Shown piece by piece: positions 20,721 through 58,171 of a stretch of 64,000 nt of DNA (position 1 is the first letter of the stretch; every line of letters starts with the position of its first letter). Made by a program: the position numbers and the translations under genes. The DNA is taken from the IMG/VR virus record IMGVR_UViG_3300010149_000001, positions 1-64,000 of that record, one strand, 5' to 3'. Below the pieces are notes generated by a model. That model was not told the DNA's origin. It worked only from the letters and a program-made list of their open reading frames with translations, and searched no databases. The DNA is from a virus.

Positions 20721-21890
20721 ATGGGACTAATTGAAAACATGAGAGATGCCGTTGAGTTCAACGGTGGCAAACTGACAGAAGAACAATACTTGGAAAAAGT
20801 GCTGGAGATAATCGAAAGCGAAGGTGGCTCAACCTCCATCGCTTCTCTGAAATCCAACGCATTCAATTCTGCTCGTATGGAGAAGGCTGGAATCACCAGA
20901 CTGACCATCGGCAAAGACAAGTTCGTTTGGACAACCGCTATGGTTGAAGGAATGCTTTCTGGCAACGCTACACCAATGCCAACAACAACAATGGTCAACA
21001 ATGTCAATGCACCAGAAGCAACAGACGATGGCTACTTCTATGGAATCCGCCGACGCTCTCCAGATGAATACCCAGAACACATGCAAGCATACATCATCCC
21101 TCGTGGTTCACTCAAGTTTGTTGAATCAGAAAAGGGCGAGATGCGCTTGCTTGCTGTCGCATTCAAGAACGGCTGGTATGTTTCCAGCAACGGACCCAAA
21201 GGCTGTGGCAAGACAATGGCTATGATGATGTTCGCTTCTGAGGTCGGTATTCCATTCATGCGAATTAACTGCTCAGAAGGTTTCACAGAAGAGTCCTTCA
21301 TTGGCTACAACACACTCATTGACGGTGAAATCACTTGGATTGACGGAGTTCTCCCAGAGAGCCTCCGATACGGTGCTTTCCTTTGCTTCGATGAGTTCCG
21401 CCACGCTCGCCCAGAGATTATGACCGCATGGAATCCTGTTGGCGACTCTGGCACTCTTGTATTGCCTCAGAACAACAACGAGGTCATCAAGGCTCACGCT
21501 GACTTCCGCACCTTCGCAACCATGAACCCAATCGAAGGCTACTCTGGTGGACAAGATGTCAACCAAGCAACATCTGACCGATTCGCTATGTCTCTTGAGG
21601 CTACATACCTCCCAGCAGACTCTGAAATCCGTGTCATCTGTGAACAGTCTGGTGTTTCAAACCCAGCCATCGCTCGTCAATTCGTGCAATTGGCAAACGA
21701 CCTTCGCAACCTCAAGGCTCAACATGACCTTGAGTCTGACACATCAACCCGTATGCTCATCAGCATGATGCAAGCAACAACAGATTTGTCTGTTGCTGAA
21801 ATCGTTGAGTATATCATGATTGGTCGCTATCAACCACACGAAGCCGAACTCATCAAGACAACGGCTCGTGCAAGGTTGTCTGACTACTGA
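20721..21890 (+). CDS. MoxR/CobS-like AAA+ ATPase
   Basis: GPKGCGKT, FDE, ATMNP..Y.G, DRF. Confidence 0.9.
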   Translation: MGLIENMRDAVEFNGGKLTEEQYLEKVLEIIESEGGSTSIASLKSNAFNSARMEKAGITRLTIGKDKFVWTTAMVEGMLSGNATPMPTTTMVNNVNAPEATDDGYFYGIRRRSPDEYPEHMQAYIIPRGSLKFVESEKGEMRLLAVAFKNGWYVSSNGPKGCGKTMAMMMFASEVGIPFMRINCSEGFTEESFIGYNTLIDGEITWIDGVLPESLRYGAFLCFDEFRHARPEIMTAWNPVGDSGTLVLPQNNNEVIKAHADFRTFATMNPIEGYSGGQDVNQATSDRFAMSLEATYLPADSEIRVICEQSGVSNPAIARQFVQLANDLRNLKAQHDLESDTSTRMLISMMQATTDLSVAEIVEYIMIGRYQPHEAELIKTTARARLSDY

Positions 21891-21903
21891 ATACAATTCT
21901 CTG

Positions 21904-21965
21904 GTCTCGTGCAAACGGGCTGGGGGGTATTGCACGAGGCTATCTGTGTCTCAAACCCCCAGCCC
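21904..21965 (+). other. Predicted H-type pseudoknot in the 3' UTR of the AAA+ gene
   Basis: 21904-14 pairs with 21930-40; 21917-26 pairs with 21956-65 (crossing helices). Confidence 0.65.
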
Positions 21966-22004
21966 ACCTTGCATTTGATAAGGGTGGGTTCAGAACCCCA
22001 GAGC

Positions 22005-28456: not shown

Positions 28457-28813
28457 TGTGGATTCCACTTGGGCTTTGGTTGGTTGCGCTTTCGCCACCA
28501 TCTTATGACATATTTGCCGACCAGAAGCCACCAGAGAATCTCAGCGATGACCAATAAGGTCAATGAGAATCCCGTCAATCCAAACATATTATTCTCATCT
28601 GAAAAGGCGGGTATTCAATCTGGTGAACAAGTGGGTATTGAAGCATCTGGTGAAACGCATCTGGTTCAATCCAGAGTTCAAGACCGTCGCAGTATGCGTA
28701 TTGAGACCAATACCGAATCCGAATGACATGTCTCAAAATCCCACATCTGGAAACAAGAACAAAACGAGTCAGATTGCAGAAGCATTGATATACCCCCACC
28801 ACTACGGCAAGAC

Positions 28814-51294: not shown

Positions 51295-52371
51295 ATGAGT
51301 GAAGAAATCCAATTTAACGACATGGTTCAACGAGTGAAAGACGCATTAGCAGGGCAAACCGATGGTGGCTCTCAAATGTTCCCAACAGAGACTTCTGATG
51401 AAATTATTCAGATTGTCTATGAGAGGAACTTCATGCGTTCTTTGTTCTCTGCTTTGCCAATGGCGACCAGAACTATCAAAGTGCCAAAACTTTCAACATC
51501 TGTCGGATTCCACCGTCAGACTCTTGCTTCAACACAGGCTGGAACTGCGGCTGATGAATCCACTCAAGGAACAGCAGAGATTGACTTGACCTTGACCACC
51601 ATGATTGCCAACATTCCAATCGGAAACTATCTGATTGCATACGGTGTCGAAGGATTGCTGACTGTGCTTCGTGATGACATCGCTTCTCGCTTGGCCTTCA
51701 ATGAAGAATCACTCTTCATCAACGGAGACAAGCAAGCCACTCTTGCTGACAACATCAACGGTGCGTATGCAAACCCAGCAAACTTGTCTGGAATCAACGC
51801 AACCGCAGGTGCATCTCAGAACGACTACTTGCTATCTCAGAACGGACTTCGCAAACTTGCTGGAACATCTGTCTCTGTCTCTGGAACTTTTGCTCTGAGC
51901 CACCTTCGCTCGGCAATCAACCAATTGGGAGTTCACGCTGACAACCGTGATGAACTATCATTGATTGTTCCTCGCAACCTTGAAGTTCAATTGATGGGCT
52001 TCACAGAACTTCAAACTGTTGACAAATACGGTGCTGGTGCAACCATCCTCTCTGGAGAACTTGGTCGTATCTATGGAATCCGTGTCTTTGCCACAGGAAC
52101 AATCCCAACCAACCTAAATTGGACAGGACTTTACGAACTTGGCAAGACTGTCAACGGCTCTGCGGCAATCGCTGACAAGACCGTTGCTCTTTTGGTCAAC
52201 AACCGTTCACCTCTGATTGGCAACCCAACAGATGCTGACCGCAGATTCAACATGGGCTTCCTTGATGAGCCAACCAAAGACCGTTTCGTCTTAATCCCTC
52301 GTCAAGACATCGCTTTCAATGTGCGATACACAGAGGCTGTTTGTCTGCTTCACGGTATCGCAACCGTCTGA
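51295..52371 (+). CDS. Major capsid protein (HK97 fold)
   Basis: P.E.S.EII, EE.LFING, G.I.GI.V; follows the protease; AGGTGA SD. Confidence 0.9.
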   Translation: MSEEIQFNDMVQRVKDALAGQTDGGSQMFPTETSDEIIQIVYERNFMRSLFSALPMATRTIKVPKLSTSVGFHRQTLASTQAGTAADESTQGTAEIDLTLTTMIANIPIGNYLIAYGVEGLLTVLRDDIASRLAFNEESLFINGDKQATLADNINGAYANPANLSGINATAGASQNDYLLSQNGLRKLAGTSVSVSGTFALSHLRSAINQLGVHADNRDELSLIVPRNLEVQLMGFTELQTVDKYGAGATILSGELGRIYGIRVFATGTIPTNLNWTGLYELGKTVNGSAAIADKTVALLVNNRSPLIGNPTDADRRFNMGFLDEPTKDRFVLIPRQDIAFNVRYTEAVCLLHGIATV

Positions 52372-56650: not shown

Positions 56651-56977
56651 TCAGTTAATTTTGTTGCCATCCATGTCAAAGACATCACGGCCACCTTCGC
56701 CACCACGCATTCGGATAACGGTGAATCGGTCATCGCCAGAGATTGAAACCCAAGCGAATGTGCGAGGTTCTGTGATTAAGTATTCTGAACCTGTGCATCC
56801 TGTGATAACTTCTTTGACTTGAGTTTCAACGACTGTCATCTCCATGCTGATTGCTTTGGATTCCTCGATGCAGATAAACATCTCAGCGGTGCTTGCATCC
56901 GTAGCGGTGTTGTGAAAATACACTTCATGGATTTTGTCAGTCTCAGTCTCTTTGACTTGGTATGGGTATTGGCTCAT
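56651..56977 (-). CDS. Hypothetical protein (antisense cassette, gene 1)
   Basis: Class-E promoter at 56978-57036. Confidence 0.75.
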   Translation of the reverse strand: MSQYPYQVKETETDKIHEVYFHNTATDASTAEMFICIEESKAISMEMTVVETQVKEVITGCTGSEYLITEPRTFAWVSISGDDRFTVIRMRGGEGGRDVFDMDGNKIN

Positions 56978-57065
56978 ATCCCTGCGTGTGCATACCACTA
57001 TATCAATGCGTCGGCCATATCAATGGTTTTGTTCTTAAAATGAGCAAGTTTTGGTTCGCCAGAAA

Positions 57066-57166
57066 GGGTGGGACATGGTGGTTATGGCGGCATATACAAA
57101 CCGACTGACAGCCCACCATGCCCCGATGTTGGATGCCCAATCCAACAAGGAGGTTTAGCCGTCAGC
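57066..57166 (-). ncRNA. Candidate pseudoknotted ncRNA C
   Basis: Class-L promoter at 57196-57187; 9-bp and 12-bp crossing helices; 8-bp hairpin; G-U pairs favour the minus strand. Confidence 0.6.
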
Positions 57167-57244
57167 AATTATCAGACTCCAGAGTCGGTTTATCAGCGTA
57201 TTCACGCCAATACCGTTAAAACCCCTCACGGATGACCAAGACCC

Positions 57245-57625
57245 ATGAGCGACCTCTTGAAACTCACCAAAACCAAACTGCTGAAACTTGTTGAAGAAGC
57301 AGGTCTGACCGCAGATGCAGAAGCAACCAAAGCAGATTTGGTCGCACTCCTTGAAGCAGTTCCAGAAGAAGCACCAGCAGAAGTGGTTGAAGAAGTGGTT
57401 GCAGAGACTCCAAAAAAAGCAAAGAAGCCTTCTGGTTCTAAGGTCGCACTCGACATGGAACTTCAAGGTGGCGAGTTCGTTAAGGCGGCTTATCTGGCTA
57501 TTCTAAAGCGTGAAGCAGACCCAATGGGTCTTGCGAACTACACAGGCGCATTGGCTATGGGTGGCATGACCAAAGAAGGTCTTGTCGAGGACTTGAAAGC
57601 CTCTGGCGAATACGCCGCACTTTGA
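57245..57625 (+). CDS. HeH/Rho-N-like domain plus DUF4214-like domain protein
   Basis: LTKTKL...TKADLVALL; FV.AAY.AIL.RE.D..G...Y. Confidence 0.7.
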   Translation: MSDLLKLTKTKLLKLVEEAGLTADAEATKADLVALLEAVPEEAPAEVVEEVVAETPKKAKKPSGSKVALDMELQGGEFVKAAYLAILKREADPMGLANYTGALAMGGMTKEGLVEDLKASGEYAAL

Positions 57626-57627
57626 GT

Positions 57628-58017
57628 TCACTCAAACTTGCACATGAATGAACTGCCACAGTCGGTTTGATTCCAATCCCAGCGGTATGCTGACATGATT
57701 ATTGCCATAGCCTCAAAGACTCTTTCACGGTCAGACTGAGTTCCTTCTCCACTCCACATGACGAATCCTTCATATTTCCAAGCATCTTCTGTGAACCAAT
57801 CTTCTCCACGATTTGCTTGACGGATTTTGAAAGTGCAAGGTGAATCACCGTTGGTGAATATAATTTCACAGTCCTCACGGATAGCAATCTGTTGTTCTGT
57901 TATGTCCATCTTGACCCATTCACCAGATGTGAATGTGTTTTCTGGTCGGTTTGGAATAGTGAAAACTCCAATCGCTTCTGTGGTTGTCATTGTCTGTTGC
58001 ATGTTGGTTCTGCTCAT
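57628..58017 (-). CDS. Hypothetical protein (antisense cassette)
   Basis: Class-E promoter at 58018-58074. Confidence 0.75.
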   Translation of the reverse strand: MSRTNMQQTMTTTEAIGVFTIPNRPENTFTSGEWVKMDITEQQIAIREDCEIIFTNGDSPCTFKIRQANRGEDWFTEDAWKYEGFVMWSGEGTQSDRERVFEAMAIIMSAYRWDWNQTDCGSSFMCKFE

Positions 58018-58171
58018 ACCCCTGCGTGGGAGTTCCCCCTTATAATATCTTCTCAATCTCAATGGTTTTGTTCCTAATTCCCACCTTATTGAAGTCAATA
58101 CACACCATATTGGTCAGAATAATTGAGATTCCTCCGAAGCCTTGAAGTCCTATCGTGGTTCACACCCCAAC

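Follow-up and report, generated by a model that had tools for sequence, protein, structure and literature searches.

A predicted small RNA with a conserved H-type pseudoknot in a probably archaeal virus

The locus and its viral setting

The DNA analysed here, referred to below as the window, comprises bases 1-64,000 of a record in IMG/VR for an uncultured marine virus; the record has 81,676 bp and carries direct terminal repeats. Among the products encoded by the window are a portal with a fused MuF-like domain, a large terminase and a family-B DNA polymerase, together with an RFC-like clamp loader and a primase-polymerase-like protein. The top full-length phage-genome matches of the polymerase are haloarchaeal tailed viruses, at 22-23% identity, and the contigs of one MAG include a terminase with 67% identity; the title of that MAG, 'Methanobacteriota archaeon', gives the name of a phylum (taxid 28890) earlier known as Euryarchaeota. 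An A/T-rich box is common before the genes of the window, its hexamer starting 28-29 nt upstream of the ATG. Taken together, the polymerase matches, the terminase on an archaeal MAG, the gene content and this box-to-ATG geometry suggest, albeit indirectly, that the host of the virus is probably an archaeon.

The element described here is placed in a 245-bp spacer, with a minus-strand gene (ATG at 56977) on one side and a divergent plus-strand gene encoding a DUF4214 protein on the other (Table 1). The DUF4214 gene has a leaderless-type start, with a TTAAAA box at -29 to -24. The minus-strand gene has its own TTGATATA box, which recurs on the plus strand at 28785, 35003 and 70859.

Read on the minus strand, the spacer contains two crossing helices, H1 and H2, and all the helices, their topology and an ACCUCCU motif were found where the initial annotation had placed them. 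H1 consists of 9 bp, of which two are G.U, and H2 of 12 bp including one G.U; H2 crosses H1 and there is no gap between its 5' arm and the 3' arm of H1. The claim that the G.U pairs exist only on the minus strand also held, in that the plus strand gives C.A at these positions and a pseudoknot finder finds nothing there. The stated distance of 22 nt between promoter and first helix is correct when counted from the end of GATAAA (57194-57189), but from the end of the promoter 11-mer it is 19 nt. In the predicted fold CCAUAA, the last part of loop 3, would pass across H1 on its shallow-groove side. A triple-helix reading of loop 1 was rejected by geometry, loop 1 being expected to run antiparallel to the purine-rich strand of H2.

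Table 1. Features of the spacer and its flanks, in window coordinates.
Feature	Position	Strand	Basis or remark
Promoter 11-mer CTGATAAACCG	57196-57186	-	Sequence reading
TATA-like hexamer GATAAA, inside the 11-mer	57189..57194	-	Fixed distance to H1 across lineages
Predicted transcription start, G, first base of H1	57166	-	Inferred from promoter-box distance
H1 5' arm, 9 nt	57158..57166	-	Pairs with 57112-57104
ACCUCCU in loop 1 (J1, 57125-57157)	57148..57154	-	Conserved core CCUCC
Hairpin A, 8 bp, loop UGGGC, optional insert in loop 1	57127..57147	-	57147-57140 with 57134-57127
H2 5' arm, 12 nt, G-rich	57113..57124	-	Pairs with 57081-57070
H1 3' arm, 9 nt	57104..57112	-	Abuts the H2 5' arm directly
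Hairpin B, 4 bp, 8-nt loop, optional insert in loop 3	57088..57103	-	3 of 4 pairs change on both sides
CCAUAA, end of loop 3	57082..57087	-	C-A/U-U-A-like run before the H2 3' arm in most lineages
H2 3' arm, 12 nt, C-rich	57070..57081	-	Pairs with 57124-57113
3' tail, ACC then C/U-rich run, probable RNA end	57061..57069	-	Conservation in relatives
TTGATATA box of the next minus-strand gene (ATG 56977), separate unit	56999..57006	-	Repeated element
Divergent neighbour gene, SAP-like N-terminus and DUF4214	57245..57625	+	Pfam DUF4214, E = 1.5e-7

On the plus strand, 57148-57155 reads AAGGAGGT, a textbook Shine-Dalgarno (SD) site. No ATG, GTG or TTG lies within the next 12 nt, and the sole ORF that runs across it is broken in the close relative L005 (see below).

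Taken as a single sequence, the element is unremarkable. The 21 contiguous pairs were reached by 0 of 1000 and by 1 of 500 dinucleotide shuffles in two runs on the 111-nt RNA. For the nested minimum-energy fold z is -0.93, with 38 of 200 shuffles at least as stable, which is unexceptional. About six places score equally in a scan of both strands of the 81.7-kb genome. Neither sequence motif is enriched: the promoter 11-mer, allowing up to two mismatches, was seen 10 times with 11.7 expected, and ACCTCCT occurs 4 times on both strands, where simple arithmetic predicts about 10. The pattern in the single sequence is therefore not beyond chance genome-wide, whereas its conservation with covariation in relatives is, and it is on conservation that the case for the element rests.

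Relatives and covariation of the two helices

Relatives were sought through the neighbouring DUF4214 protein. We collected 22 homologues, aligned 17 of them and scanned the alignment against viral and metagenome collections, which gave 17 distinct loci. Upstream regions were read and three covariance models (R1, R2 and R3) were then applied; MAFFT alone misaligned the diverged copies, and the covariance models were used instead. The RNA is present in 8 of the 17 loci (L005, L018, L019, L021, L008, L023, L009 and L013), the L018 copy being incomplete because it is cut by a contig end. Nine loci were without the element, some of them truncated or only distantly related. A ninth copy, outside those loci, was found on contig C42 of the archaeal MAG G005. 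With the window, L005 and L018 taken as one group, the same H-type pseudoknot is thus found in eight lineages among related marine viral contigs. Its copy number is 1 in each of the complete genomes G000 and G001, and in G002, which is 80% complete.

Contig C42 carries two matches, at loci L123 and L122 (2750-2862 and 5345-5467, minus strand), namely a full pseudoknot, with CAUCC for CCUCC, and a partial look-alike. The latter, 2.5 kb from the full copy, consists of an H2 hairpin, immediately preceded by ACCUC and ending in an ACC tail, and lacks a clear H1. Homologues of the window genes at 34-39 kb surround both matches.

L005, a close viral contig with about 92% DNA identity that had been found via the neighbour protein, was the only contig returned by an exact 30-mer scan of IMG/VR, and a sequence from run X2 proved to be a variant of the L005 type that adds no lineage. 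A 15-mer from the tail matched 43 loci in IMG/VR, 42 of them by chance, and 32 of these loci were used as controls. A 16-letter tail pattern matched 24 IMG/VR loci without finding a member, the one weak match being a plain hairpin. When the second neighbour, a Laminin_G_3 protein, was used as the search handle, the sole new locus was a duplicate of the L009 version.

The flanks of the element differ between relatives. Downstream of the RNA lies an HNH endonuclease, by motif reading, in L009 and an unrelated small protein in the window. The L009 gene (1573-2307, minus strand), directly downstream of the RNA, encodes a 244-aa protein assigned from its Cys/His motifs; judged from its first codons, the downstream gene of L008 is of the same type. 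Beyond the DUF4214 gene, the window region 57631-58029, with a minus-strand ORF of 156 aa, has no counterpart in L005, and a contig of run X2 has 341 different letters in its place. This region is a swappable cassette beside the DUF4214 gene.

The initial annotation had proposed looking for covariation among homologues. Indeed, H1 and H2 both covary, and none of 500 shuffles was as good, a comparison made for H1 on the structure as a whole. All 12 pairs of H2 are kept (100% of cells paired in 9 sequences) and 10 of the 12 have changed on both sides, as have 6 of the 9 pairs of H1 and 5 of the 8 pairs of hairpin A. In alignment A8, built with model R2 and covering H2 and the hairpins, 94.9% of cells are paired and 18 of 24 pairs changed on both sides (0/500 shuffles), compared with 42-56% paired in slid controls. 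The corresponding values for A9, built with model R3 and covering H1 and the hairpins, are 89.4% and 14 of 21 (0/500 shuffles), with slid controls at 32-48%; the unpaired cells of A9 mostly represent differences in arm length, beyond what one column scheme can hold. Both alignments were fitted to covariance models and so favour the modelled structure.

Support that does not depend on model-fitted alignments comes from three sources. An alignment-free finder that looks for contiguous helices in an H-type arrangement gave a single solution in all seven complete sequences; the score of each was reached by 0-4 of 500 shuffles, and in six of the seven the opposite strand was without a pseudoknot. 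Model R2 detected L009 (E = 6e-4) and L013 (E = 7e-5), both absent from its training set. On 32 unrelated control loci, the same model was nearly silent, with one match at E = 3.5.

The geometry is also kept. H1 ranges from 7 to 10 bp and H2 from 11 to 14 bp (12-13 in the seven complete sequences). The gap between the H2 5' arm and the H1 3' arm is 0 nt, also in L013 and the G005 copy, except for 2 nt in L008; since one arm runs straight into the other, the two helices can stack. The first pair of H1 is G.U in six of eight lineages and G-C in L009 and L013, and the second is C-G in all eight rows. Overall, G.U pairs make up 21 of the 146 pairs across the tabulated sequences. Over the element, L005 has 10 differences from the window, comprising 8 substitutions and 2 indels. 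Three of the substitutions lie upstream of the predicted start and five lie in helices, where pairing is kept on the minus strand, including changes from G-C to A-U in H1, from G-C to U.G at the end of H2 and from G-C to G.U in hairpin A. L018 has two pair-breaking substitutions, one in H1 and one in hairpin A. Hairpin A is clear in four of seven tabulated lineages (the window group, L019, L008 and L023), vestigial in L021 and absent from L009 and L013, and hairpin B is missing from L021, L023 and L009; judged by this distribution, both hairpins are dispensable.

A weak R2 match (E = 0.029) was seen elsewhere in the window, at 21879-21979 on the plus strand, just after the stop of gene 20721-21890. 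By eye this is a pseudoknot of the same topology, with helices of 9 and 10 bp and ACC after the second helix. It differs in having a loop 1 of only 2 nt without CCUCC, and is followed by the TATA+GGGTGGG box of the next gene.

No Rfam 15 family reached its gathering score anywhere in the 64-kb window, and at E values up to 10 the sole match within 56950-57300 was a chance CRISPR-repeat hit (E = 6.5). A small protein-coding gene was considered and rejected: the -1 and +2 indels in L005 break a 55-aa plus-strand ORF as well as both minus-strand ORFs. In the database protein P0006 (197 aa), the DUF4214 gene call is extended upstream through the RNA region; the extension switches frame twice, between two frames relative to the window, and is probably a mis-called start. 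The conserved, covarying structure thus supports the earlier proposal of a non-coding minus-strand unit with a pseudoknot. Comparison between relatives shows that 57166 to about 57061 on the minus strand has the properties of a small non-coding RNA gene, predicted to yield a classical H-type pseudoknot, and the element is a well-supported candidate for a new structured-RNA family.

Promoter, transcript ends and exposed strands

The position of the promoter box is more constant than its sequence. Counted from the base that opens H1, the window, L005, L019, L021, L008, L023 and L009 have an A/T-rich hexamer at -28 to -23, and the two most distant copies, L013 and G005, have one at -29 to -24. 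The 22-nt spacer between box and H1 is unrelated between lineages. This box-to-start spacing equals the box-to-ATG spacing of leaderless genes; at gene 52466, for example, the distance from GATAAA to the A of the ATG is the same as that from GATAAA to the start of H1. The fixed distance, matching that of leaderless genes, points to G 57166 as the start, and we infer that the RNA is transcribed on its own from the TATA-like box, with no need for 5' processing. The initial annotation had assigned the promoter to a late class. A promoter-like box is present, but its class is not general: the GATAAACC type occurs in the window, L019 and L009, and L008, L021 and the G005 copy have TATA+GGGTGGG. Since the box type differs between lineages, 'late' is not a trait of the family.

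This second promoter type, a TATA-like box followed by GGGTGGG, was also seen upstream of 3715, 5752, 8085, 10408 and 17454, where it precedes genes of the replication module, and upstream of many G001 genes; it is unlike the GATAAACC and TTGATATA types. CCCACC, formed by the end of H2 and the tail, looks complementary to the promoter spacer motif GGTGGG, possibly by coincidence.

After H2, a tail of ACC plus 8-14 C/U-rich bases is found in seven of eight lineages, the G005 copy being different, and the next gene's own box comes after it. The RNA would therefore appear to end in this C/U-rich tail, just before the promoter of the next gene. From an oligo-dT marine RNA run, X1, only two contigs were obtained, each of 151 nt at depth 2; they span 56991-57139 and 57181-57307. 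Since these cover promoter DNA as well, they may be DNA carry-over.

The ACCUCCU motif is identical to the anti-SD sequence at the 16S rRNA 3' end, as the initial annotation pointed out. Comparison upholds an unpaired C-rich motif under selection, but the full 7-mer is kept only in the window's own group, and there only in the window and L005, L018 having G in the last place. The core CCUCC is exact in six of eight lineages, with CCUCU in L019 and CAUCC in the G005 copy, and begins 0-4 nt past the H1 5' arm. Its flanks vary (CACCUCC in L008 and L013, GCCUCC in L009, ACCUCU in L019), such that ACCUCC or CACCUCC is found in five lineages. Identity with the 16S 3' tail beyond the CCUCC core is not kept across the relatives. 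As had been claimed, the motif is unpaired: CCUCC has no partner once H1 and H2 have both formed, and in the nested ensemble ACCUCCU has a probability of 0.64-0.88 of being unpaired. When H2 is left out of the fold, CCUCC pairs with the G-run of the H2 5' arm, which could represent a folding intermediate or an alternative state.

Candidate functions and comparison with known RNAs

The reading that we favour, with a probability of roughly 0.35, is that of a trans-acting RNA which, by means of its knot, presents two unpaired pyrimidine-rich strands to G-rich partners; these would probably be SD-like sites in particular mRNAs. It is preferred because the conserved unpaired bases are exactly of the kind that such pairing would need. 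The knot would provide a compact, nuclease-resistant scaffold that leaves two stretches exposed, namely CCUCC, in the first part of loop 1, and the tail of ACC plus C/U-rich bases. Both would pair in trans, most likely with such SD-like segments. The mode of pairing would be that of the C-rich-loop regulators RsaE and RoxS, whose C-rich motifs pair with G-rich ribosome-binding sites. A seed of this type is present in the conserved unpaired CCUCC, exact in six lineages of eight. Duplex scans of loop 1 against the gene-start regions of G000, G001 and G002 found no shared orthologous site; the best duplexes fall on different genes, often on untranscribed promoter spacers. Against a role as seed, the C-rich motif could instead serve folding, by pairing with the G-run of the H2 5' arm.

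Knot and single strands might instead form a recognition surface for a viral or host protein, the RNA acting as scaffold or decoy with no mRNA pairing. Candidate partners include the product of the neighbouring SAP/DUF4214 gene and a factor to which the 16S 3' end is normally bound; we regard this reading as a tentative possibility. The conserved unpaired positions are few and short (CCUCC, a C before H2 and ACC after it), as is typical of protein sites, and the 5' end is conserved too, with G.U or G-C followed by C-G. In addition, no more than 0.6 kb separates the RNA from the DUF4214 gene wherever that gene served to fetch the locus; this linkage is partly an artefact of retrieval, and the G005 copy instead sits among homologues of the window genes at 34-39 kb. 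To our knowledge, bS21 is a bacterial protein that archaea do not have, which counts against the precedent for protein binding. In that precedent, helix P6 of OLE RNA carries CCUCCU, a copy of the 16S 3' tail with its anti-SD, and mutation of it is reported to abolish binding of the ribosome component bS21 (PMC12054373). The proposal that prompted this study, in which the RNA imitates the 3' end of 16S rRNA, sequesters SD sequences generally and so shifts translation towards leaderless viral mRNAs, now seems unlikely. In its favour, most lineages keep CCUCC, which the knot leaves unpaired, and a crude call places a TATA-like box at leaderless distance before 21 of 94 ORFs. However, 34 of the 94 crude ORF calls have an SD-like tetramer (GGTG or GGAG) at -15 to -7, including the late genes at 51295 and 60881, and general blocking of SD sites is weakened because the virus's own internal genes carry them. 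Moreover, relatives do not keep the longer match to the anti-SD, the G005 copy has a change in the middle of the motif, and three lineages have a promoter of non-late type.

A role in cis, through transcription or 3' structure, would have the element act as a terminator, as an insulator between divergent promoters or as a block to the next promoter. In L008, L009, L013, L021 and L023 its tail reaches or just precedes the next gene's TATA box, and in the window it lies 55 nt upstream of the TTGATATA box, but transcription alone would not select two covarying helices with fixed loop motifs and the downstream gene differs between lineages, making such a role improbable. Two further readings are more remote still. 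A self-cleaving ribozyme related to the HDV-like class would account for the two crossing helices, the G.U first pair of H1 in six of eight lineages and the C-A-rich joiner ahead of the H2 3' arm. The partial likeness to HDV seen in the initial annotation fails, however, because there is no P3/L3, nor room for one, in the 0-2 nt between the H2 5' arm and the H1 3' arm. In addition, the first pair is G-C in L009 and L013, no Rfam ribozyme model matches at E values up to 10, and the predicted transcript begins at G1 already, so that cleavage there would remove nothing; we consider membership of that class very improbable. The same holds for a tRNA-like minihelix, in which the approximately 12 bp of H2 plus A-C-C would mimic an acceptor/T arm as a substrate for RNase P, RNase Z or the CCA-adding enzyme. 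H2 starts with G-G-G and ends with C-C-C, ACC follows in seven of eight lineages and the base at -1 is C in six of seven tabulated lineages, but the length of H2 varies between 11 and 14 bp, the stacking of H1 on H2 leaves no T-loop, ARAGORN reports 0 tRNA genes in the window, and rnaC and rnaD of the T4 tRNA cluster do not match the model. Kinship with these T4 RNAs was rejected separately: on the T4 tRNA region the best R2 match (E = 0.19) lies elsewhere, that over rnaC has E = 0.86, and the folds differ.

With a 5' end predicted to the base, helices that covary strongly and few invariant positions, the element is well suited to probing, structure work and target hunting, and it provides a defined object with which to test viral tampering with the choice between SD-led and leaderless translation. 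The most far-reaching version, in which an archaeal virus encodes a miniature stand-in for the 16S 3' end whose CCUCC and C/U tail capture SD sites or a factor that reads the anti-SD, is a long shot. If true, such a stand-in would re-weight SD-led against leaderless translation during infection, and an RNA decoy at the anti-SD interaction would be a takeover mechanism that we have not found described for any virus. We know of few non-coding RNAs from archaeal viruses. Our search of the literature on archaeal-virus non-coding RNA pseudoknots, anti-SD decoys, leaderless translation and magroviruses found no such RNA described. Word searches of two papers on viruses of marine group II archaea (PMC5434244, PMC11706807) found none of the terms promoter, TATA, intergenic, non-coding and ncRNA.

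Three known systems invite comparison. As in HDV-like ribozymes, the helices cross in the manner of P1 and P2, a hairpin lies between the 3' arms, and the first 5' pair is often G.U; unlike them, the viral RNA is without P3/L3 and P1.1, and one uninterrupted strand passes from its H2 into its H1, which allows end-to-end stacking in place of a side-by-side arrangement. With OLE RNA it has in common that a non-coding RNA carries a copy of 16S 3'-tail sequence, although the OLE motif is paired with an SD-like strand inside a bacterial RNA of about 600 nt (PMC12054373). The viral motif, by comparison, has no partner when the knot is formed, a G-run becoming its partner only in the alternative fold, and its 7-mer is not conserved. 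A functional parallel to the favoured trans-acting reading is with RsaE/RoxS of Firmicutes, which are reported to be base-pairing small RNAs with C-rich loops (PMC6158497, PMC8216469). Those are bacterial hairpin RNAs with known targets, whereas the viral RNA is a pseudoknot without sequence or Rfam relation to them. Nevertheless, both are small, separately transcribed (as predicted for the viral RNA) and present a short, unpaired C-rich motif.
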